In this document: piece by piece, positions 1 to 37,943 of the stretch
Layout: the number at the start of each line of letters is the position of its first letter
Position numbering within the stretch: the stretch's first letter is position 1
NCBI GenBank assembly: GCA_039961895.1
Contig: JABRVU010000157.1
Span: 1-51,771 of the forward strand
Direction: 5' to 3'
DNA: 51,771 nt
DNA from: Phycisphaerae bacterium
GTDB lineage: Bacteria > Planctomycetota > Phycisphaerae > UBA1845 > PWPN01
Translations under genes and position numbers: made by a program
Notes under the pieces: model-generated
Seen by the model: only the letters and a program-made list of their open reading frames with translations
The model's database searches: none
Told to the model about the DNA's origin: nothing

Positions 1-80
1 TCGGTACATTCCGTCCGGCGCACCGCCACCTACGACATCACGTATCTCGTCTGATTCTTTCCTCTGACGATGCTCTCCCG

Positions 81-404
81 TGCGAAGGGTACCCTTCGCA
101 AACCGCGAAGGACCTTCGTACCCGTAAACCTCGTCATATCAAGCTGTTGAGCCGACACTGCGAAGGTGCGAAGGGTTTCAGGGGTTCATCCCCTTACTCA
201 GAAAAAAATACCGCATGTCGTGATCCCGTGTCTCCCGAGGGATCACCGCTTGTTTTTTTTCGGTCCGCGCGGGAGTGACCCTCTCTACATCCTTCGCACC
301 TTCGCATTCTTTATTCATATCTATCAGCAATATCAATCAGCTACGGCACTGCGAAGGTTCCTGCGAAGGTTCGAACCGCATTCATCGACCTTCGCACCTT
401 CGCA
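81..404. repeat. Array of 12 copies of the octamer TGCGAAGG / CCTTCGCA arranged as six adjacent pairs
   Basis: Read directly. Inverted pair 81-100 (perfect 20-nt palindrome TGCGAAGGGTACCCTTCGCA). Degenerate inverted pair 104-120. Direct pair 159-174 (+). Direct pair 291-306 (-). Direct pair 350-369 (+, inside the tandem CTGCGAAGGTTC x2 at 349-372). Direct pair 389-404 (-). An AT-rich stretch lies at 305-345. Confidence 0.9.
220..260 (+). terminator. Rho-independent terminator-like hairpin with T8 tract, inside the octamer array
   Basis: Stem GTGATCCC (220-227) pairs with GGGATCAC (239-246), 11-nt loop, then CCGCTTG + T8 (253-260). An A7 run at 202-208 lies upstream, so it may act bidirectionally. 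Confidence 0.5.
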
Positions 405-406
405 TC

Positions 407-437
407 CCGACGGCAGGGACCCCGCTCCGGTAGGTAT
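407..437 (+). promoter_or_regulatory. Bipartite motif copy a: CCGACG-N18-TAGGTAT
   Basis: CCGACG 407-412, 18-nt spacer ending CTCCGG, TAGGTAT 431-437. It ends 4 nt before ATG 441. Confidence 0.6.
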
Positions 438-440
438 CCC

Positions 441-1331
441 ATGAACGGAAACCACCCGATTGGAGCAGAGAACGTGAGCCTTCTCGAACTCATGATGCAA
501 CAGACCGCCGGAGGATCAGCCCCGGTCGATACGAGCAACCCGTCGGTCGATGTCTCCAAGCCGGAGACATCGGAACCGGCTGAGCGCAACGGTCCGCAGG
601 AAACCGCCGATCCCGACGGCACCGCCCTCTATGCGGCCACGAATCTGGACTCCTGGGAAACCGACAAACCTCGATACTTCGCGCGGGACGTGGGCATGGA
701 CGGCGTCTGCTATCGCCGTCTGGACCCGGAATACTACGCTTGGCTCCGGCACAAGATGGCGCTGGCCAAAAAAGCGCTGGAGGCAGGACGACTCGATTCC
801 GCCGCCTTCGACGGATTGCGAACCCGCTTCAACGAAATCCATGCATGGGCGGTCGCACGTTTCGGTGAGAACGAGCTTCTCGCCGCCGTTCGGAGCCTCG
901 ATCCCAAGGCATATCCTCCGCCGGCGATTGACCCGGCCGCCCAGAGCCGTCCCGCTTGTGCCGCACCCGTCTCTCCGGTTGCATGTCCCCCTGGACCGGC
1001 TGTCGAGCAATACCTTTACCCCAAGGACGGGGAGTGGCGTTTTACGGAGAAGGTCCCGCAATCGGCCATCGACAAGGTCGATGCCATCCGCGACCAGGCG
1101 CTCTCCCTCGACTGGTCCGAGGCGCGGCTCTATCAGAACCGGGGACGGTTCCGCTTCCCCTGCGGCGAAGACTACGGACTCGTCTGTTTCGTCGATGCCA
1201 ACGAACGCATCGGCCAAGTGACCCGGCAGTACATCGAGATCGTCGGCCCGCCACCGCGGGAGAACCGTCTTCGTTTTCACAACCCCGACGTGGATCAACC
1301 ATGGCTCAAGAGAACGAATCCGGAAACATGA
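441..1331 (+). CDS. Hypothetical protein (296 aa), no family recognised
   Basis: ATG-initiated ORF with high third-position GC. Its stop overlaps an in-frame ATG of the next gene (ATGA at 1328-1331). Confidence 0.6.
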   Translation: MNGNHPIGAENVSLLELMMQQTAGGSAPVDTSNPSVDVSKPETSEPAERNGPQETADPDGTALYAATNLDSWETDKPRYFARDVGMDGVCYRRLDPEYYAWLRHKMALAKKALEAGRLDSAAFDGLRTRFNEIHAWAVARFGENELLAAVRSLDPKAYPPPAIDPAAQSRPACAAPVSPVACPPGPAVEQYLYPKDGEWRFTEKVPQSAIDKVDAIRDQALSLDWSEARLYQNRGRFRFPCGEDYGLVCFVDANERIGQVTRQYIEIVGPPPRENRLRFHNPDVDQPWLKRTNPET

Positions 1332-1594
1332 AACGGCCCTACGCCAATGCCAGGGACGTTCTGCCGTCCGAGGTGCTCGACACCGTCCGGCGGCATTTCA
1401 CCGGTCTCCTCTGGGTGCCGAGCGACGTGGGTTTTTACGAGGAACGCCGCAAGCTCGTATTGGCGCTCAAGGGACAAGGCGTGCCTACCCGCGAAATCGC
1501 CCGGTTGTCCGGCGTCACATCGCGCCGGGTGCGCCAGATCGTGGCTCAGAGCCGCGAGGAATCCATCCCGACGCATCGCGATCCGCTCCGGTAG
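1301..1594 (+). CDS. Small HTH protein, Mor/C-like transcriptional activator candidate
   Basis: Lower part of ORF 956-1594. ATG at 1301; alternative ATG at 1328 in an ATGA overlap with the upstream stop. C-terminal HTH-like stretch: GQGVPTREIARLSGVTSRRVRQIV, preceded by LLWVP...YEERRKLVL, which resembles the Mor family layout. Confidence 0.55.
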   Translation: MAQENESGNMKRPYANARDVLPSEVLDTVRRHFTGLLWVPSDVGFYEERRKLVLALKGQGVPTREIARLSGVTSRRVRQIVAQSREESIPTHRDPLR

Positions 1595-1598
1595 ATAT
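1568..1598 (+). promoter_or_regulatory. Bipartite motif copy b: CCGACG-N18-TAGATAT
   Basis: CCGACG 1568-1573, spacer ends CTCCGG, TAGATAT 1592-1598. The TAG at 1592-1594 is also the stop codon of the HTH gene. Confidence 0.6.
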
Positions 1599-1672
1599 CG
1601 AGGGAGGTTCCCCTGAAGAGGGCGAAATCCGCCTTCCGCCCCGAACCCCGAGATGCCGAAACGAAAAATGCG

Positions 1673-2209
1673 GTGACCATGGCAGACGACCAGGCCCAAG
1701 ACGGGATCGGAAAACACGACGCGGGTCAGCTCAAACGCTGGCACCGCAACGCTGCGTCCGAGCAGGAGGTCCGCAAGACCGCCAAAGCACGGACCGGCAG
1801 CGGCGCGGCTCCGGGCAACCAGAACAGCCTGCGCCACGGCATCTACGCCGACCGCTTTCTCTCCCCGGAGGAGCGACCTCTCTTCGAGGCCATCATCGGC
1901 CAGCTCTACCAGGACTTCGTGTTCAACAAGAGCTCGGACTTCATGCAGGTCGAGCTGGTGGCGGTCTACTTCCTCAAGCTGGGCCGGGCGCAGGAGTCCG
2001 GCGACTGGGACGCCGCCGAGCGGCTGGACCGGATGATCCGCTGCCACCTCAAGGACCTCAAGGCCACCAAGATCGCCCGTGAGGGTGAGGCATCCCAGGG
2101 ACCGGAGACGACGCCGGCTGAGTGGGCCACGGCTCTGCTTGAGAAGCTGGCGGAGTCGCAGAAGAAACCGGCCCGGAAAACGACCGCAAGAGGGAAAACA
2201 CGGAAATGA
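1673..2209 (+). CDS. terS: Putative terminase small subunit
   Basis: GTG at 1673 or ATG at 1679. Contains PGNQNSLRHGIYA, a GNxNxxxHG motif I associate with small terminases, plus a basic C-terminal tail. Sits in the packaging region, but 2.4 kb upstream of terL. Confidence 0.45.
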   Translation: MTMADDQAQDGIGKHDAGQLKRWHRNAASEQEVRKTAKARTGSGAAPGNQNSLRHGIYADRFLSPEERPLFEAIIGQLYQDFVFNKSSDFMQVELVAVYFLKLGRAQESGDWDAAERLDRMIRCHLKDLKATKIAREGEASQGPETTPAEWATALLEKLAESQKKPARKTTARGKTRK

Positions 2210-2473
2210 GGTCGGATAACACCACCACCCGCCATGCAGCGACCCGCGAAACACGCGGACTTGCGGCCAGCGCCGGCCTGGGAATGTCGGATAAGACGTG
2301 TTCTCTGACATTCCGAAGCCGCCGGTCGGCGGAAGGTTCTGTCAATCAATGCTTCCGCCCGGCATCTCAAGGCTTCGATGCCGCCCGCATCATTGCCTGC
2401 GGATGTGTTCGGGGACGCGACTGTAGGCTGACTGTCTCTTTCCTCTGTCATTGCCTGTCCGAAGGCGGGAATG

Positions 2474-2497
2474 GAAAAGCGGCCCGGGTGGACCGCT
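2474..2497 (-). terminator. Weak terminator-like hairpin downstream of the recombinase gene
   Basis: On the minus strand: AGCGGTCC-ACCC-GGGCCGCT (one G-U pair) followed by TTTTCC. Begins 24 nt after the stop at 2521. Confidence 0.35.
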
Positions 2498-2520
2498 TGG
2501 CTTCCATGGTCGGCGGCGGA

Positions 2521-3480
2521 TCAGAGACGCTCGAGGGCGTCCTCCAGCGCGCCGTCCACAAGGTGGGTGTAGACCTGGGTGGTCGACAGGTCCCGGTGAC
2601 CGAGGGCCCGCTGGACCACCAGGATATCTCCGGTCCGGCTGTAGAGGTGGGTGGCGAAGGTATGCCGGAGCGCATGCGGGCTGAGCTTCTTGTCGATGCC
2701 TGCGGCCTTGAGCCAATACTCGAGCCGCCTGGCCACCTGCCGCTCGCAGAGTCGCTCCCCGCGGTTGGAGAGGAACAAAGCCCGGCATTCGCCGTCGCCC
2801 CGGCGTCGGCGCTCGACCAGGTAACTCCGCAGGAGGGATCGCAGAGTGGACTTTAGAAACTTCACTTGCGGGACGGAGCCCTTGGCGAGCACGCGGAGAT
2901 GCTTGGCGTCGAGGTCCACGTCCTCGATGTCAAGGTCGACGAGTTCCTGCAGCCGGATGCCGGTCCCGAGGAAGACCTCGATGATGACGCGGTCCCGGAC
3001 TGCCAGCGAGGATGCCCTGCCGCGAAGTTCCTTGAGCAGACGGCGCTTCTCGGCCTCGGTCAGAAACTTGGGGGGAGTCCGGGGAAGCCTGCGAAGGGTC
3101 AACGACCCGGCCGGATTCTCCCGGACGATTTCGTTCCGCTCGGCCCAGGTGAAGAACGACCGGACGGCCGCCTTGAACCGGTGCATGGACGCCGGCGACC
3201 GGACGCCGCCTCCGGCCGAGGTCGTCACCTGCGGTGAGGTCAACGCCTCGTCGATCATGGGGCTGGTCACCTCCTCCGGGACGATCCCCGGATGCCCCCG
3301 GAGGAGCGCCTCTGACAGGTACGAGAGGTCGCGCAGGTATGCGCTGATGGTGTTCTCCGAACGCCCTTCGGCCGCGAGCCTCCTGCCGAAGGCTTCCAAG
3401 GCTTCGGTGAAACCGGGCCGCGCGCTGGAAGGCTCAGGACTGCTCAGCAGCCGGAGACTCGATGGCGTCGTGTTCGTCAT
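2521..3480 (-). CDS. Tyrosine recombinase, XerC/XerD/phage-integrase family
   Basis: Full catalytic signature: Arg in TGIRLQE, HALRHTFATHL (HxxR), LGHRDLSTTQVYTHL (His...Tyr). The N-terminal core-binding region ENTISAYLRDLSYL is present. Confidence 0.9.
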   Translation of the reverse strand: MTNTTPSSLRLLSSPEPSSARPGFTEALEAFGRRLAAEGRSENTISAYLRDLSYLSEALLRGHPGIVPEEVTSPMIDEALTSPQVTTSAGGGVRSPASMHRFKAAVRSFFTWAERNEIVRENPAGSLTLRRLPRTPPKFLTEAEKRRLLKELRGRASSLAVRDRVIIEVFLGTGIRLQELVDLDIEDVDLDAKHLRVLAKGSVPQVKFLKSTLRSLLRSYLVERRRRGDGECRALFLSNRGERLCERQVARRLEYWLKAAGIDKKLSPHALRHTFATHLYSRTGDILVVQRALGHRDLSTTQVYTHLVDGALEDALERL

Positions 3481-3835
3481 TACGCTCTCCTCCTTTCTTG
3501 GCGCTCCGGCCCATGGGCGTGTCCTTGGGCAGGGGCAGCTTGTCGATGCGGCCGGTATCCTTGGCCCAGATCAGAAACATGCGGAGCACCCGCTTGGTCT
3601 TTTCGACCGTGGGCACGGAGCGCTCCCGCCCGTTGGGCAGCTTGAGCAGCGCATCGGACTTGAAGAATTTTCCCACGTGCGGAATGAGGACGCTGGACAG
3701 CTTGCGCTCCGCACCGAAGAAGGCCTCGATCTGCTCGAAGTCCTTGCCGTAGGTGTAGAGCGTCCGCTCCTTTTTCCCCTGGGTCCGCAGGTGTTCCAGA
3801 TAGGCCTGGGCGGCCTGATGCAGGGTCTCGTTCAT
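3434..3835 (-). CDS. Stand-alone integrase core-binding (SAM-like) domain protein
   Basis: 133 aa. AQAYLEHLRTQGKKERTLYTYGKDFEQIEAFF...TVEKTKRVLRMFLIWAKDTGRI resembles the N-terminal domain of tyrosine recombinases. Overlaps the recombinase start by 47 nt. Confidence 0.55.
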   Translation of the reverse strand: MNETLHQAAQAYLEHLRTQGKKERTLYTYGKDFEQIEAFFGAERKLSSVLIPHVGKFFKSDALLKLPNGRERSVPTVEKTKRVLRMFLIWAKDTGRIDKLPLPKDTPMGRSAKKGGERNDEHDAIESPAAEQS

Positions 3836-4053
3836 GATTCGTTCTCCTTTCGTTTGTTGAGTTCAGGTTTCCCGGACCGGATGGTCCCGGCGTCGAAAAC
3901 GCGCATTCGGCACCTCCTTTCAAACGGCTCAAGTCCTTGTAAATCAAGGCGCTGCGCACATTCACATACAGGCTTCGTGTGCGCCGGAAGTCAAGGCGTT
4001 CCATGCACATTCCAGAGAAACAATCAGGCCCGGGGCGGGCCGGGAGGGGAATC

Positions 4054-4344
4054 ATGAGAAGACAGGTCGAAACGATCCTGAAGGCGCTGTTGGCAGCGAG
4101 TCTGGCGGCATCCCTGCTGGGTTGCGCCGCTGCCAGACCGCCTCAGCGGATTCAGGACGCCATTCACACGGCGAACCGCTATATGCCCGAGTACGTGGCC
4201 GAGGCCAACAAAGCCCTGGCCGACGCGGAGCACCCGGACCGGGAGCGCCTGGTCGGCATCGGTGACCGGTTGGCCGAGGTATTGGACGCCATGGACCGTT
4301 GGGCGTCGAGGCAGGAAAAAACGCCGGAGGAGGACAAGCGATGA
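4054..4344 (+). CDS. Small lipoprotein (96 aa)
   Basis: ATG 4054 preceded by GGGAGGGGA. Signal peptide with lipobox: LAASLAASLLGC. Confidence 0.6.
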   Translation: MRRQVETILKALLAASLAASLLGCAAARPPQRIQDAIHTANRYMPEYVAEANKALADAEHPDRERLVGIGDRLAEVLDAMDRWASRQEKTPEEDKR

Positions 4345-4619
4345 AGGAAATCCTGGAACGGAACAGCGAGGCCGTCCGCGAGGCTGGACGGCAACTGGTC
4401 GAGATCGGTGCGGAGCTGGCTGCCGGGAAAATCGACGATGCCCTGGCCCGGCTCGATACCGCACGGCAGGCTTACCCCGAGTGGGAGGAGCTCGATCAAG
4501 CCGCGGCTGATATCGAAGGGGTGATCCGCGACCGCGAAGGAATGCTCGCCGTCCAGCACATCCTGGCCGAGATCATCGGCACGGTCCTCGGGTCGGCCTT
4601 GAGGTCGAGGCTGCCCTGA
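4341..4619 (+). CDS. Hypothetical helical protein (92 aa)
   Basis: ATGA overlap with the upstream stop. Its TGA overlaps the terL ATG by 1 nt (TGATG), so it looks translationally coupled on both sides. Confidence 0.5.
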   Translation: MKEILERNSEAVREAGRQLVEIGAELAAGKIDDALARLDTARQAYPEWEELDQAAADIEGVIRDREGMLAVQHILAEIIGTVLGSALRSRLP

Positions 4620-6145
4620 TGGCCCGGATATCCGCCAAGGAGCGCAAACTGGCGGAGACCCTGGCGGACCCGGTCCTCTGGGGGCAGGGATACCTGCGCA
4701 ACCGCGACGGGGGACAACGGGTCTACTGGCCGCACCAGGCGGAAGACCTGCTCTGCCCGGACAAAAATATCATCCACCTGGACGGACGCGACGTGGGCAA
4801 GAGCGTCTGCATCACCACCGATGCCCTGCATTTCGCCTTCACCAACCGAGGCTGCCAGGGACTCGTCGCCGCGCCCCACCAAGGGCATCTCGACACGCTG
4901 ATCGAGGAGATCGAATTCCAGCTCGACGCCAACCCGGACCTCATGGTCAGTGTGGCTCTCACCAAATACGGCAAGCCCAAGATTCACCGCAAACCATACT
5001 TCCGGCTCGAATTCACCAACGGCGCGATCCTCTACTTCCGTCCCGCCGGGGCTTACGGCGACGCTTTCCGCTCGCTGCATGTGGACCGGGTCTGGGTGGA
5101 CGAAGGGGCTTGGCTCACCGAGCGGGCCTGGAAAGCCCTTCGCCAGTGCCTGAAGTCGGGCGGCAGACTGCGCATCTATTCGACGCCCAACGGGCTGCGT
5201 GACACGACCTATTACCGCTTGACCGGCTCGACCCAGTTCCGGGTGTTCCGCTGGCCTTCCTGGCTGAACCCGGCGTGGACCCAGGAGCGGGAGGCCGAGT
5301 TGCTGGAGTTCTACGGCGGCCGGGACAGCGCGGGCTGGCAGCACGAGGTGGCCGGCGAACACGGCAAGCCTTCATACGGCGCGTTCAACATCGAGCACCT
5401 CAATCTCTGCCGACAGGATGTGGTCGAGTACCAGAAGGTCGTCGTCACCGGCGGGGAACTGCGTGGCTGCGCCACCGAGGAGGAATCCCACGACCGCCTG
5501 GAGATGCTACTCAATCTCATGCCGCGGACCGGCGTCTTCTGGATCGGAGGAGACTTGGGATACACCAACGACCCGACCGAGATCGTCGTGTTCCAGGAGA
5601 TCGAACTGCCCGAGCGCAGGATCGTCAAGCTGGTTCTGCGGGTCCGCATGGAGCACGTGGCCTATCCTCACATCGCCCAGACCATCGCGCTTCTGGACCG
5701 GTATTACACAGCCGCGGGCATCGGCGTGGACAACGGCGGCAACGGAATGGCCGTCGTTCAGGAACTGCTGACCCTGGACAAGTACAAAGACCTGGCTCTT
5801 CAGGGGCGGCTGCGCGGTTACGACTTCGGGGGCATGACCACCTTGGCCGTGCGCGACGGCCACGAGGTCAGGAAGCGGACCAAGGAATTCATGACCAGCC
5901 TTATCGCCGGGGCGCTCCAGCGACGTCAGCTTGTGTTCCCCATCGACGACCTGGAGATCGAGGATCAGTTCACCACCCACACCTACACGCTGCACGACGG
6001 GCGCATCGTCTATTCCAAGGGCAATGACCACATCATTGACGCCGTGCGCTGCGCCATGCTGGCCCGGGAGCAGTCCACCCTCAACCAAGTGGGCGAGGAG
6101 ACGGTCTCTCTGGTGCCGCTGACGACCGATCCGGTGTTCATCTGA
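4619..6145 (+). CDS. terL: Terminase large subunit
   Basis: 508 aa. Walker A-like LDGRDVGKS, Walker B VWVDEGAW, and a C-terminal nuclease-like region IGGDLGYTNDPTEIVVF ... DHIIDAVRCA. Confidence 0.85.
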   Translation: MARISAKERKLAETLADPVLWGQGYLRNRDGGQRVYWPHQAEDLLCPDKNIIHLDGRDVGKSVCITTDALHFAFTNRGCQGLVAAPHQGHLDTLIEEIEFQLDANPDLMVSVALTKYGKPKIHRKPYFRLEFTNGAILYFRPAGAYGDAFRSLHVDRVWVDEGAWLTERAWKALRQCLKSGGRLRIYSTPNGLRDTTYYRLTGSTQFRVFRWPSWLNPAWTQEREAELLEFYGGRDSAGWQHEVAGEHGKPSYGAFNIEHLNLCRQDVVEYQKVVVTGGELRGCATEEESHDRLEMLLNLMPRTGVFWIGGDLGYTNDPTEIVVFQEIELPERRIVKLVLRVRMEHVAYPHIAQTIALLDRYYTAAGIGVDNGGNGMAVVQELLTLDKYKDLALQGRLRGYDFGGMTTLAVRDGHEVRKRTKEFMTSLIAGALQRRQLVFPIDDLEIEDQFTTHTYTLHDGRIVYSKGNDHIIDAVRCAMLAREQSTLNQVGEETVSLVPLTTDPVFI

Positions 6146-6159
6146 GAGAAACGACCAAA

Positions 6160-6183
6160 GCCTCCAGTGTTTTTCATGGAGGC
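6160..6183. terminator. Hairpin between convergent terL and ATPase genes
   Basis: GCCTCCA (6160-6166) pairs with TGGAGGC (6177-6183), 10-nt loop. On the minus strand it is followed by TTTGGTCGTTTCTC. Confidence 0.45.
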
Positions 6184-6279
6184 ATTCGATTTGACGAAAA
6201 TCCACAAAACCCAGCTTTTTCCCCGGATATCCCGTTTCGATGTCAAGTCCCGTCCCCGGTCAAAAGGAATCTCATGCAG

Positions 6280-7724: not shown

Positions 7725-7755
7725 CCGACGTTCCTTCCCCGCCTCCGGTAGATAA
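7725..7755 (+). promoter_or_regulatory. Bipartite motif copy c: CCGACG-N18-TAGATAA
   Basis: CCGACG 7725-7730, spacer ends CTCCGG, TAGATAA 7749-7755. About 36 nt upstream of the portal ATG. Confidence 0.6.
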
Positions 7756-7790
7756 CCCCAGGGGCGGGCTTTCCCCGCCACACGGCGCGA

Positions 7791-14821: not shown

Positions 14822-14852
14822 CCGACACTTTTCGACGGTCTCCGGTAGGTAT
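14822..14852 (+). promoter_or_regulatory. Bipartite motif copy d: CCGACA-N18-TAGGTAT
   Basis: CCGACA 14822-14827, spacer ends CTCCGG, TAGGTAT 14846-14852. The flank CTGATCCCC..CCGACACTT is shared with copy e. Confidence 0.65.
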
Positions 14853-14955
14853 CCAAGCGACAGGGCTCTCGGCCTGATTTCGGGGTTCACCCCGGGCACG
14901 GGCCGACCGCCCACCGGCATCAACCGGATTTGTCGCGACATGACCGGAGAACCGA

Positions 14956-21739: not shown

Positions 21740-21770
21740 GCCGACACTTCCCGTCCGGCTCCGGTAGGTA
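21740..21770 (+). promoter_or_regulatory. Bipartite motif copy e: CCGACA-N18-TAGGTAT
   Basis: CCGACA 21740-21745, spacer ends CTCCGG, TAGGTAT 21764-21770. Sits at the head/tail module boundary. Confidence 0.65.
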
Positions 21771-21808
21771 TCCAGCGGAAACGTTCGCTTGAGCCGGAGG
21801 AACCGGAA

Positions 21809-30824: not shown

Positions 30825-30855
30825 CCGACACCTCGCGCCGCGCGCCGGTAAGTAT
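30825..30855 (+). promoter_or_regulatory. Bipartite motif copy f: CCGACA-N18-TAAGTAT
   Basis: CCGACA 30825-30830, spacer ends CGCCGG, TAAGTAT 30849-30855. 45 nt upstream of ATG 30901. Confidence 0.6.
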
Positions 30856-30900
30856 CCGGTGGAGTCCGCCCCTTCAGGCGGGCCGACTGGAGACCGGCGC

Positions 30901-37421: not shown

Positions 37422-37876
37422 TGGCTTTGGATTTTCTCGGACGCGGGCTTAAGTTCCCTTTCCGCTTTCAGCGGCGGTCCGGTGGCGCGCAGGTTTCCTC
37501 GGCCACCTCCACCGAGCACGAACACATCCACGAGAGCATCCTCCAGATTCTCGGCACCCGGCCGGGCGAACGCTTCATGCGCCCGGAATTCGGCTCGAAA
37601 CTCAAGGACCTGGTGTTCGAGCCGAACGATGAGGTGCTGAAGGGGCTGATCCGCCATTATGTGATCGACGCCGTGAAGCGCTGGGAGAAACGGATCGTCA
37701 TCACCGGCGTCTCCTTCGACGATTCCCCCGCGAACAAGGATCGCAATCTTCTCCCGGTCCGCATCGCCTATCGCGTCATCCAGAGCCAGGTGGAGGGCAA
37801 CCTGGTCTATCCCTTTTACCGCGAACCGCGCCAATCCGCTCCGCCCCGACAGTTCCGCTCCGTCGCCGGTAAGTAA
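37421..37876 (+). CDS. Baseplate wedge protein gpW / gp25-like
   Basis: GRGLKFPF......G......HI.ESI.QILGT.PGER.M.PEFGS.L..L.FEPN is the GPW_gp25 signature. Confidence 0.85.
   Translation: MALDFLGRGLKFPFRFQRRSGGAQVSSATSTEHEHIHESILQILGTRPGERFMRPEFGSKLKDLVFEPNDEVLKGLIRHYVIDAVKRWEKRIVITGVSFDDSPANKDRNLLPVRIAYRVIQSQVEGNLVYPFYREPRQSAPPRQFRSVAGK
37846..37876 (+). promoter_or_regulatory. Bipartite motif copy g: CCGACA-N18-TAAGTAA
   Basis: CCGACA 37846-37851, spacer ends CGCCGG, TAAGTAA 37870-37876. The TAA at 37874-37876 is the gpW stop codon. Confidence 0.55.
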
Positions 37877-37943
37877 CAAGCGGGTCCTCGTCCGGCTCGT
37901 CCGGCGGGGCCACTTGTGACCGAACCGCAACGGACGAACGGAA

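Follow-up and report, generated by a model that had tools for sequence, protein, structure and literature searches.

A probable replication origin of paired octamers beside the primase gene of a widespread temperate phage

A 324-bp array of short repeats near the start of a 51,771-nucleotide contig from a Phycisphaerae bacterium (the whole contig being the window analyzed here) is probably the replication origin of a phage, with octamers that, judging from sequence comparisons, would serve as iterons for the C-terminal domain of the phage's primase-ATPase. Since satellite phage P4 and the staphylococcal SaPI islands already display this design, the probable origin is a well-supported and unsurprising find. 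As a secondary and weaker claim, occupancy of this origin may also gate late transcription, because just 2 bp separate the last iteron pair from the first late promoter's -35-like box, upstream of the gene for a putative late-activator HTH protein. The original prediction had favored an operator region for a DNA-binding regulator and had offered origin iterons with a DNA-unwinding element, or recognition by the small terminase (TerS), as alternatives; the origin alternative proved the best supported, whereas the operator, its main reading, was not supported and TerS recognition is disfavored.

The array and its neighborhood

The octamer TGCGAAGG occurs in exact copies on the plus strand at 81, 159, 167, 350, and 362 and on the minus strand at 93, 291, 299, 389, and 397, and these 10 exact copies combine with 2 one-mismatch copies to form six pairs at 81-404. 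Across the window we counted 11 exact copies, the sole one outside the array being at 3090, against a shuffle expectation of 2.57 (11 or more in 0 of 100 shuffles), and one-mismatch copies as a class were without enrichment (66 versus 61 expected). The 5.0-Mb host genome holds 103 copies of TGCGAAGG, and the array is its only cluster of at least 3 within 300 bp. Among 17 distinct arrays of the lineage that carries TGCGAAGG (type A), octamer columns were 95% conserved versus 78% for the spacers (Mann-Whitney p = 5e-16).

Numbering the octamers as candidate iterons from left to right, iterons 1-2 (81..100) form a perfect 20-bp palindrome, TGCGAAGG gtac CCTTCGCA, that is 99-100% conserved across the 17 type-A arrays. 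Iterons 3-4 (104..120) are a degenerate inverted pair, CGCGAAGG a CCTTCGTA, with one mismatch each (CGCGAAGG at 104-111 on the plus strand and TACGAAGG at 113-120 on the minus strand) and conservation of 93% and 82%, and many relatives carry an exact CCTTCGCA at this position. Iterons 5-6 (159..174, plus strand) are a head-to-tail tandem with an 8-bp period, a pair that is kept at this position in every octamer type, and they form the left arm of a large inverted repeat around the center, with the tandem pair of iterons 7-8 (291..306, minus strand) as its right arm; iteron 8 (299-306) is degenerate in many relatives, with 77% conservation. Iterons 9-10 (349..372, plus strand) place their octamers at 350-357 and 362-369 in a perfect 12-bp tandem that is 97-99% conserved, and iterons 11-12 (389..404, minus strand) are a tandem pair 2 bp upstream of a -35-like box, with conservation of 99-100%.

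Elements other than octamers fill the space between these pairs. The conserved element GTTTCAGGGGTTCATCCCC (175..193, plus strand) comes directly after the tandem pair whatever the specificity type, with a consensus that by eye is roughly GTTTCAGAGGTCTCACCCC, and 175-218 is 86% conserved in type-A arrays. Its imperfect mirror, the right-hand element (263..290, plus strand), precedes the minus-strand pair, by eye reads roughly CACGNGGAGTAATATTTCTATAC in other types, and is 65% conserved within type A. At the center, a segment of A7, GC hairpin, and T8 (201..262, plus strand) resembles a bidirectional terminator (A7 at 202-208, stem at 220-227/239-246, T8 at 253-260, RNA fold z = -3.1) and probably marks the end of the early (primase) operon in the TGCGAAGG sub-lineage. 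This segment is just 66% conserved in type-A relatives, and the A/T tracts shown at the array center in other octamer types are short in locus L007. RNAalifold over 12 type-A sequences gave no consensus structure for the central hairpin, and the folds of the equivalent regions of other octamer types were not significant, so we consider the hairpin lineage-specific and rejected it as a conserved RNA or DNA structure. Scanning 1-700 for sigma-70 promoters and terminators yielded nothing useful, the loop of the central hairpin exceeding the scanner's limit, and an Rfam search of 1-1500 returned a chance lncRNA match alone (E = 0.66) and no known RNA.

A candidate DNA-unwinding element (307..349) lies between the minus-strand pair at 291-306 and the plus-strand pair at 350-369; it is 87% conserved, 307-340 is 74% AT, and the richest 30-bp window there belongs to the most AT-rich 0.008% of the contig. 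Within it, an IHF-like site, TATCAATCAGCTA (331-343), has one mismatch to WATCAANNNNTTR, and loci L022, L025, and L030 have perfect IHF-consensus matches, read by eye, at the same position.

To the right of the array, the first of seven late-promoter-like motifs (407..438, plus strand) comprises CCGACG (407-412), an 18-nt spacer, and TAGGTA within CTCCGGTAGGTATC (425-438). The last iteron pair ends 2 bp before the -35-like CCGACG and abuts it without overlap; the motif follows the array in relatives of every octamer type, at 1-3 bp from the iteron pair to the -35-like box in at least three specificity types and at 11 bp in type D. The predicted arrangement was in these respects accurate: twelve octamers in six pairs within 324 bp, the palindrome, the 12-nt tandem, and the further copy at 3090 were all verified, the hairpin and the AT-rich stretch are present between octamer pairs, and the last pair does adjoin a copy of the promoter-like motif, an adjacency kept in most lineages.

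The first gene past the array, ORF285 (285 aa; 474..1331, plus strand), starts at GTG 474 with a Shine-Dalgarno GGAG at 462-465, and ATG 441 was rejected as its start since relatives have a 1-nt indel after ATG 441 and the starts are conserved. ORF285 has 676 homologues (protein clusters) without annotation or Pfam domain, and its AF2 model (pLDDT 65.6) found no PDB fold match. It was rejected as the octamer reader, its folded domains being near-identical in L022 and L024 despite different octamers, as was a small downstream HTH protein, whose recognition helix is invariant across octamer types; the HTH protein more likely reads the invariant promoter motif, and its gene is a putative late activator. 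Farther on, the minus strand carries two tyrosine-recombinase-like genes (2521-3835). At 1.3 kb downstream of the array there is a weak TerS match (phrog_1889, E = 8e-5; NCBIfam TerS_not_xtmA, E = 3e-4, below cutoff), and TerL is 4.2 kb downstream.

To the left, the window starts mid-gene, within the last 17 codons of a phage primase-ATPase gene (1..54, plus strand), which read SVHSVRRTATYDITYLV ahead of the stop at 52-54, encode a predicted beta-hairpin tail, and match the tail of a 1106-aa protein (L008:2291-5611). In the host's own genome the primase gene was not found beyond these 17 codons, so all protein data for the primase-ATPase were drawn from relatives. In about 20 close relatives the upstream gene encodes a protein of 1106 aa in which a DnaG-type primase is joined to a P-loop ATPase, and the array starts 27-30 bp past the gene's stop codon. 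This protein combines a CHC2 zinc ribbon, DnaG catalytic core, Toprim, and Walker-A ATPase and matches phrog_47 'DNA primase' over its full length (E = 2e-186).

Placing the array in a whole element, a complete relative prophage reads, in order, serine integrase, LexA-like repressor, PD-(D/E)XK nuclease, AAA_24, DUF669, RecD2-like helicase, primase, array, and late genes, with one octamer cluster in 180 kb that ends the replication module. Its LexA-like repressor lies 13 kb from the array and has no octamers nearby. A second array, in the manner of P4-style ori plus crr, was found neither in the window nor in the genome nor in the 180 kb around this relative. The element is a widespread temperate, myovirus-like phage that integrates via a serine recombinase at its left end, and its prophages occur in Desulfobacterota, Acidobacteriota, Nitrospirota, Zixibacteria, and other phyla; a related prophage of the GGTGAAAG type (locus L020) is carried by the isolate Desulfosarcina cetonica JCM 12296. 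The other end of our contig overlaps C14 by 85 bp, continuing into host DNA.

Pairing of octamers with the primase tail

Comparison of relatives revealed that the array in this phage group, whose conservation the original prediction had left to be checked, is retained at about 75 related loci, which share its layout and carry an octamer that differs by lineage. We found at least nine octamer variants, each locus having 8-14 near-identical copies, and the variants seen on the common layout besides TGCGAAGG are TGGGAAGG, TGCGGTGG, TGCGGGTG, GCCGAAGG, GCCGAAAG, GTAGAAAG, ACCGAAAG, and GGTGAAAG. The recurring layout consists of inverted pairs, a plus-strand tandem, an A/T-tract center, a minus-strand tandem, an AT-rich stretch, a plus-strand pair, and a minus-strand pair. 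Using the primase C-terminus as query, 51 IMG/VR loci were fetched, and all 48 that had enough downstream DNA to judge held one array each, 27 bp to 2.4 kb downstream. Exceptions to the adjacency of array and gene were locus L022, where the array lies beside late genes and the primase gene is 10 kb off on the other strand, and decayed prophages without a primase gene, as which we read locus L021, with a full 11-copy array in a genome without a primase homologue.

In every testable locus the octamer type matched the last ~25 residues of the primase, a predicted beta-hairpin, giving at least six tail/octamer pairings and 0 mismatches in about 75 loci. Tail RRTATYDITYLV pairs with octamer TGCGAAGG, tail HSTATYDIAYLL with TGGGAAGG, tail NAHTKNFEYRI with TGCGGTGG, tail NHRGTKLYTIQ or DHKGRRVY with GCCGAAAG, and tail KRYGTKLYTIQ with GTAGAAAG. 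Three natural mosaic proteins also conform to the pairing. In L034 and L040, identity is 80-100% over most of the first ~900 aa (one 50-aa window has 68%) and drops from 56% to 15% at the C-terminus, and the octamers differ. L071 is 92.6% identical over 202 aa to the G-type L074 yet has the H-type loop KRY, and its octamers, 1.7 kb away, are H-type. L053 and L065 share 88.6% identity, then 32% in the tail, and have GCCGAAAG and ACCGAAAG, respectively. Remnants of a second array type occur on the promoter side only (L025 and L071-73). With 27 bp to 10 kb of DNA between the tail codons and the array, co-inheritance through physical linkage could by itself account for much of the co-variation of octamer and tail, and the mosaics, as sequences, are also compatible with breakpoints lying upstream of both.

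The C-terminal domain that would do the reading is predicted to comprise three helices and a beta-hairpin, according to an AlphaFold2 model that gives the final ~120 aa block-mean pLDDT values of 72-94, at least 84 in most blocks, and shows helices followed by the hairpin. Foldseek with this domain returned best E-values of 0.2 (PDB) and 0.04 (BFVD), which are not significant, and the weak fold matches (RepE54, a Rep-iteron complex, the ORC winged helix, and phage replicative helicases) are thematically apt. The last ~15 residues of the putative initiator (loops NHR, KRY, HSIRR, HTK, and others), taken together with the octamers, may represent a beta-hairpin-to-DNA recognition code. For the rest of the protein, searches of Pfam, NCBIfam, and PDB profiles assigned the ATPase domain to no helicase family, the PDB profile search with the initiator gave DnaG primases only, and tblastn of the primase against phage records returned distant matches only, at 22-28% identity within the primase domain. 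At the nucleotide level, blastn turned up no match among 50,697 phage records.

The origin reading and its competitors

Several features typical of P4/SaPI-type origins are found together here: 12 copies of a short motif in both orientations within 324 bp, an array directly 3' of the initiator gene, an AT-rich segment flanked by opposed iterons, and an iteron sequence that co-varies with the initiator C-terminus, the last being confounded by physical linkage. Origin iterons with a DNA-unwinding element, formerly an alternative, have become the best-supported reading through the tail-octamer co-variation, the mosaics, and the layout shared with P4 and SaPI. The initiator showed no homology in sequence to either P4 alpha or a SaPI Rep: hhalign of the C-terminal domain against the P4 alpha C-terminus gave a probability of 0.2%, and PDB profile matches were to DnaG only, so the initiator is an analogue and not a demonstrated homologue.

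Among known systems, iteron plasmid and lambdoid origins (RepE, TrfA, and Pi; lambda O) place repeated initiator-binding sites next to an AT-rich element that unwinds, in many cases together with an IHF site, and have a specificity that co-evolves with the initiator. Our array is alike in its repeated sites beside an AT-rich element and in the RepE54 and Rep-iteron complex among the weak fold matches, and it differs in that classical iterons are 17-22 bp, direct, and in phase, whereas those here are 8 bp in mixed orientation and the initiator carries its own primase.

The P4 record (NC_001609) shows the alpha primase gene, then a terminator, then crr with ten 8-bp repeats in both orientations and tandem pairs at a 9-bp period. 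Shared with the present phages are the octamer unit, both orientations, tandem pairs at an 8-9-bp period, about ten copies directly 3' of a primase-type initiator gene near a rho-independent terminator, and an initiator that is a single polypeptide with the primase N-terminal. P4 alpha reportedly has a C-terminal origin-binding domain, as Ziegelin and Lanka are said to have described in 1995. The two differ in that P4 needs two separated sites, ori and crr, whereas the present prophages have one array each; the alpha C-terminus is without detectable homology to the present C-terminal domain; and here the primase is DnaG-type with a CHC2 zinc ribbon, the ATPase is unclassified, and the array abuts a late promoter.

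SaPI origins have 6-12 penta- or hexanucleotide iterons immediately 3' of rep, read by a C-terminal winged helix, and an AT-rich center with at least two oppositely pointing iterons per side; iteron sequence and initiator C-terminal domain are island-specific, Pri and Rep are fused in SaPI5 (PriRep5), and a two-hexamer loading model has been proposed (PMC9371898). The likeness extends to iterons 3' of the initiator gene, a count of 6-12, an AT-rich region between opposed iterons, a fused primase-initiator, and an iteron matched to the initiator C-terminal domain. SaPI differ in having penta- or hexanucleotide iterons rather than octamers and Reps classed as MCM-like or AAA+ helicases, whose winged helix has been solved whereas here a winged helix is no more than a model-based assignment, and they are satellites, whereas the present element is a full temperate phage in many phyla.

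On the origin reading, the phage's own initiator, of ~1100 aa, would contact each octamer through its extreme C-terminal domain, with many flexible C-terminal domains of an oligomeric initiator occupying paired sites on either side of the center; two hexamers would fit the count of six iterons in 81-174 and another six in 291-404. Perhaps aided by a bend of the IHF type, binding would lead to melting of the 74%-AT segment at 307-340 or of the central A/T tracts. Synthesis would then be primed by the initiator's primase domain, and unwinding would fall to the neighboring RecD2-like helicase or to the initiator's own ATPase. These events, from physical binding and melting to helicase action and the firing of the origin, are what we infer; the repeats, their conservation, their place after the initiator gene, and an octamer that co-varies with the protein tail and not with TerS, the HTH protein, or ORF285 are what the sequences show.

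The tight, conserved junction of the array with the promoter is not expected of a pure origin. It is conceivable, though on balance we doubt it, that the origin doubles as a switch from replication to late transcription through primase-ATPase occupancy, looping, or firing. Under such a switch, transcription from the first late promoter would supply the HTH protein, a putative late activator, which would in turn fire the remaining six promoter motifs, and the terminator-like element at the array center would block read-through from the early operon.

It is unlikely that the array mainly controls the first late promoter, through looping, repression, or activation, with the origin elsewhere and the octamers bound possibly by the primase C-terminal domain as a regulator or by another factor. 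The last pair's position 2 bp from the CCGACG of a motif that precedes seven late gene blocks would suit such control, as would a junction that octamer types A, D, G, and H retain and that type B has in looser form, the L022 array that stays with late genes while its primase gene is 10 kb distant, and the terminator-like hairpin at the array center. Yet the other six copies of the promoter motif are without octamers, and in five Acidobacteriota prophages the gap between array and promoter is 120-510 bp. The array's neighbors are the primase gene upstream and ORF285 downstream, with no adjacent regulator gene, the HTH recognition helix stays constant while the octamer varies, and the LexA-like repressor gene lacks octamers in its vicinity; twelve sites in 324 bp with an AT-rich core, 3' of a replication module, are typical of an origin and atypical of a promoter. 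The absence of an adjacent regulator and the invariant HTH helix equally leave without support the original idea of operators that serve a small regulator, dimeric or tetrameric, and the divergent repressor or Cro gene looked for upstream in relatives is absent, the primase-ATPase gene being in its place. What survives of the regulatory idea is the last pair's abutment on a late-promoter-like -35 box in most lineages.

Very improbable, in our assessment, is a packaging site (pac or cosB-like) at which an oligomeric small terminase binds the repeats and directs the first cut nearby. P1 pac hexamer clusters and lambda cosB R sites are likewise clustered short repeats around a bendable site, as the octamers are around an AT-rich, IHF-like one, and the weak TerS match and TerL lie at 1.3 kb and 4.2 kb downstream. 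TerS, however, is 100% identical in L022 (TGCGGTGG) and L024 (TGCGGGTG), near-identical in L031 (TGGGAAGG) and L028 (TGCGGGTG), across types E and F, and 90% identical between the window and L007 (GGTGAAAG), and this identity at loci with different octamers disfavors TerS recognition; the array also travels with the primase gene as a cassette (L025). The contig start, 80 bp from the array, might suggest a terminus, but it falls within a gene that relatives have unbroken and is thus an assembly break; it was rejected as a physical genome end, and the other end of the contig runs on into host DNA.

A partition centromere, another nucleoprotein site (bound, for example, by ParB, ParG, or an omega-type ribbon-helix-helix protein), or accessory sites for the nearby tyrosine recombinases are also very improbable: short units of 7-8 bp, some pairs direct and others inverted, with a spacing of 8-12 bp, do recall omega heptads, ParG boxes, and MetJ metboxes, and the two recombinase-like genes at 2521-3835 are close by, but no ParA, ParB, or ribbon-helix-helix gene was found among the proteins scanned (window plus the complete relative's 16 kb upstream), each prophage has a single array, and the array is not attP because the serine recombinase at the left end carries out integration and all integrated copies keep the array unsplit.

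Implications for the phage family

The array is no new kind of system. It supplies a candidate origin and a candidate origin-binding domain for a large, uncharacterized temperate-phage family whose primase is phrog_47, and it suggests an annotation rule by which a cluster of identical 8-mers just 3' of a large phage primase gene would be called an origin and not a pac site or operator. Of the octamer variants, which number at least nine, six pair with known tail variants; this natural series, near-isogenic mosaics included, offers starting data on how a short C-terminal hairpin might read 8 bp and could yield orthogonal replication modules for anaerobes that are hard to engineer. In P2- and Mu-type phages, the dependence of late transcription on replication is known and poorly explained; the origin acting also as a switch would, if true, offer a simple cis-acting mechanism for replication-dependent late transcription.

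The octamer array and its prophage

The array at window positions 81-404 is probably a phage replication origin with the octamers as its iterons. Exact copies of TGCGAAGG begin there at 81, 159, 167, 350 and 362 on the plus strand and at 93, 291, 299, 389 and 397 on the minus strand, such that the original prediction of twelve copies holds for ten, whereas the other two (104-111 and 113-120) carry one mismatch apiece. The 20-nt palindrome (81-100) and the 12-nt tandem (349-372) proved exact, and the single extra copy outside the array was found again at 3090. Shuffling gave an expectation of 2.6 copies in the window, with 11 reached in 0 of 100 shuffles, and the whole 5.0-Mb assembly (103 copies in total) held no second cluster elsewhere.

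Between the pairs, a terminator-like hairpin (stem 220-227/239-246, flanked by an A7 run and a T8 run) folds better than shuffled sequence (z = -3.1), as anticipated; it is not conserved as a structure in the relatives compared, and is probably the terminator of the early operon in the window's sub-lineage. The AT-rich stretch was also recovered, with 307-340 (74% AT) ranking near the top of this 63%-GC contig for AT content. Two non-octamer elements at 175-193 and 263-290 are imperfect mirror images (approximate consensus GTTTCAGAGGTCTCACCCC for the one that follows the ++ pair, CACGNGGAGTAATATTTCTATAC for the one ahead of the -- pair), lengthen the inner octamer pairs into ~36-bp inverted arms, and are kept in all specificity types, with equivalents in the related loci L025, L074, L077 and L049. 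They may be a binding site for a conserved part of the initiator or for a host factor.

The window is an entire contig (C157) of a 666-contig MAG, and its right end (51687-51771) overlaps contig C14 by 85 bp; C14 becomes host-like after ~22 kb of low-GC DNA, which identifies the element as an integrated prophage. Those first ~22 kb (G000:C14:1-22000, locus L005; 51-58% GC) carry a run of very large plus-strand ORFs (846, 1445, 969, 700, 779 and >1143 aa) that may be a cargo or defence island at the right end of the prophage. The left end of the window lies inside a gene, with frame 1 reading SVHSVRRTATYDITYLV to a stop at 52-54, and no more of this primase gene than its last 17 codons is present in the window's own genome.

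Downstream of the array lie the 285-aa ORF285 (474-1331), a 96-aa HTH protein (1304-1594; HTH_23; phrog_836 'late transcriptional activator', E = 7e-6), a weak TerS match, two minus-strand tyrosine-recombinase-like genes, TerL, a Mu-type portal and then head, tail and baseplate genes. ORF285 starts at GTG 474 (GGAG at 462-465) rather than at ATG 441, since relatives carry a 1-nt indel directly after that ATG and conserve the GTG. Its family comprises 676 protein clusters, always located after the array, and matched no Pfam or NCBIfam model and no PDB fold; an N-terminal domain (residues 50-150) is predicted confidently (pLDDT around 90).

Related prophages and their octamers

Homologues of ORF285 were found at 24 genome loci and on one viral contig, and among the close relatives, a group with 78-96% protein identity, octamer positions are the same. 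The gene ending 27-30 bp before the array in this group is not the divergent repressor or Cro-like gene that the original prediction had suggested seeking, but a primase-ATPase of 1106 aa with CHC2 zinc ribbon, DnaG catalytic core, Toprim and P-loop ATPase domains and a full-length match to phrog_47 'DNA primase'; no helicase family matched its ATPase domain, and a RecD2-like helicase gene precedes it. One complete relative prophage in a 2.6-Mb scaffold (62% GC vs 48% in its host) carries, in this order, a serine integrase, LexA-like repressor, PD-(D/E)XK nuclease, AAA_24 ATPase and DUF669, followed by the RecD2-like helicase, primase-ATPase, array and late genes. This order, together with exactly one octamer cluster in 180 kb, places the array at the close of the replication module. 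Decayed prophages also occur among the relatives, without primase (L021, L026, L028) or with a broken ORF285 (L028, L030, L031).

Relatives of window 1-6200 at L008-L019 and L027 are the same prophage (90-96% protein and about 92% DNA identity), present under MAG labels of Desulfobacterota, Chloroflexota, Nitrospirota, Planctomycetota, Zixibacteria and Ca. Ozemobacter, with several of the copies in contigs of 0.2-4 Mb. The prophage's GC remains close to 62% in hosts of 48% to 68%, and, if the bins are right, its host range looks unusually broad.

More distant relatives revealed the same layout with different octamers. It runs from distal inverted pairs to a tandem ++ pair with a conserved GTTTCAGRGG...CCCC element behind it, then through a centre of A and T tracts to the mirrored element and a tandem -- pair, and ends in a ++ pair and a -- pair after an AT-rich stretch that contains an IHF-like site. 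Each locus carries 8-14 near-identical octamers, of variants GGTGAAAG, GCCGAAGG, TGCGGTGG, TGCGGGTG, TGGGAAGG, GCCGAAAG, GTAGAAAG or ACCGAAAG, and such uniformity within a phage with divergence between phages is typical of a DNA reader that the phage itself encodes and that co-evolves with its sites. Among TGCGAAGG-lineage arrays, conservation was 95% in octamer columns vs 78% in spacers (p = 5e-16). At L049:4491-4507 and other TGCGGTGG-type viral loci, 2-3 extra octamers of that type lie within the ORF285 homologue, near the 5' end of its coding sequence, where they translate as Pro-Pro-Gln repeats and may be either functional sites or a by-product of codons.

The protein that tracks the octamer

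Evaluating candidate readers, we found that the recognition helix of the HTH protein (TREIARLSGVTSRRVRQIV) is essentially invariant over all octamer types, which speaks against it as octamer reader and, with no regulator gene nearby, leaves the prediction of an operator array for a small regulator unsupported. TerS is disfavoured because the same or nearly the same protein accompanies different octamers: it is identical in L022 (TGCGGTGG) and L024 (TGCGGGTG), nearly identical in L031 (TGGGAAGG) and L028 (TGCGGGTG), and 90% identical between the window (TGCGAAGG) and L007 (GGTGAAAG). ORF285 was likewise dismissed, its variation being confined to predicted disordered segments and its folded parts near-identical in L022 and L024 despite their different octamers.

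The last ~25 residues of the primase-ATPase, by contrast with these candidates, correspond to the octamer type wherever a locus allows both to be read, although some co-inheritance is expected since tail codons and array are neighbours. Tails ending ..NRSEHSIRRTATYDITYLV accompany TGCGAAGG, ..RAGHSTATYDIAYLL accompany TGGGAAGG, ..NAHTKNFEYRI.. accompany TGCGGTGG, ..NHRGTKLYTIQ and ..DHKGRRVY.. accompany GCCGAAAG, ..KRYGTKLYTIQ accompany GTAGAAAG, and ..CHGTKKYEI.. accompany ACCGAAAG. Three mosaics sharpen the match. L034 and L040, whose octamers differ, are mostly 80-100% identical over their first ~900 residues (68% minimum, in one 50-aa window) and drop from 56% to 15% at the C-terminus; L053 (GCCGAAAG) and L065 (ACCGAAAG) are 88.6% identical, then 32% in the tail; and L071 is 92.6% identical over 202 residues to the GCCGAAAG-type L074 while having the KRY loop and GTAGAAAG array of L077, with the array 1.7 kb from the gene. 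Where a locus holds two array types (L025, L071-73), the foreign remnant is always promoter-side and the complete array fits the adjacent primase, so the unit always co-inherited runs from the hairpin-loop codons through most of the array.

Remnants of several kinds were seen: a second primase C-terminus with GCCGAAAG sites between the TGGGAAGG array and the promoter (L025:5680-5950), one GCCGAAAG-type site by the promoter after the GTAGAAAG array (L071-L073, near 5950), and, behind the array, a second copy of part of the ORF285 C-terminus (L021:5990-6430). These are scars of cassette exchange.

The last 226 aa were modelled with AlphaFold2; over the final ~120 residues block-mean pLDDT was 72-94 (84 or more in most blocks), and these residues are predicted as helices leading to a terminal beta-hairpin, a winged-helix-like arrangement. 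Foldseek returned no significant match in PDB or BFVD; the best weak matches were DNA-binding winged helices and replication proteins, namely IRF-3 DBD, RepE54, a Rep-iteron complex and the ORC winged helix in PDB (E >= 0.2), and phage replicative helicases, a virophage helicase/primase and an 'origin binding protein' in BFVD (E 0.04-0.2).

Probable origin and other possible roles

A bipartite motif, CCGAC[AG], 12-13 nt and C[TG]CCGGTA[GA][GA]TA[TA]C, with the spacing of a -35/-10 promoter, precedes seven late gene blocks on the plus strand: copy a at 407-438 (second half at 425), then 1568-1599 (1586), 7725-7756 (7743), 14822-14853 (14840), 21741-21772 (21759), 30825-30856 (30843) and 37846-37877 (37864). 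It is kept in relatives of every octamer type, and the HTH protein is a candidate reader that more likely reads this invariant motif than the octamer. Were 425-438 a -10 region, the transcript would be expected to begin near 445. The last octamer pair adjoins copy a, as originally noted, with its -35-like CCGACG (407-412) 2 bp past the last octamer. This junction is conserved, so that a dual role, as origin and gate for the first late promoter, is conceivable if unlikely. Somewhat less likely still is that the array mainly serves to control that promoter, a reading which the junction favours but which is weakened because the other six copies lack octamers, five prophages carry 120-510-bp inserts, and a nearby regulator gene is missing. 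Terminase recognition at pac or cosB, also proposed originally, is very improbable given that TerS does not co-vary with the octamer, and centromere or recombinase sites are the least credible, as partner genes did not turn up and integrated copies keep the array in one piece.

The origin reading, which the original prediction had offered as iterons plus an AT-rich element, gains from known systems whose layout the array matches. In the P4 record a terminator follows the alpha primase gene and then comes crr, whose ten 8-bp 'ori type 1 repeats' lie on either strand and partly form tandem pairs at 9-bp period. SaPIs carry 6-12 penta- or hexanucleotide iterons directly downstream of rep, opposed on either side of an AT-rich centre and read by a C-terminal winged helix, and in SaPI5 Pri and Rep are fused (PMC9371898). 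In each structural feature tested, the array itself resembles these systems; profile comparison of the proteins with the P4 alpha C-terminus was negative (probability 0.2%), and we class the array as an analogue.

In a replication origin of this kind, C-terminal domains of an oligomeric primase-ATPase would bind octamer pairs; six sites on each side of the centre would fit a pair of hexamers. Melting would follow in the AT-rich 307-340 or in the central A/T tracts, perhaps with the aid of an IHF-type bend. Priming would then be the task of the primase domain, and unwinding that of the neighbouring helicase or of the protein's own ATPase. By this analogy, the array would add to a known kind, the iteron origin beside a primase/helicase-type initiator gene.
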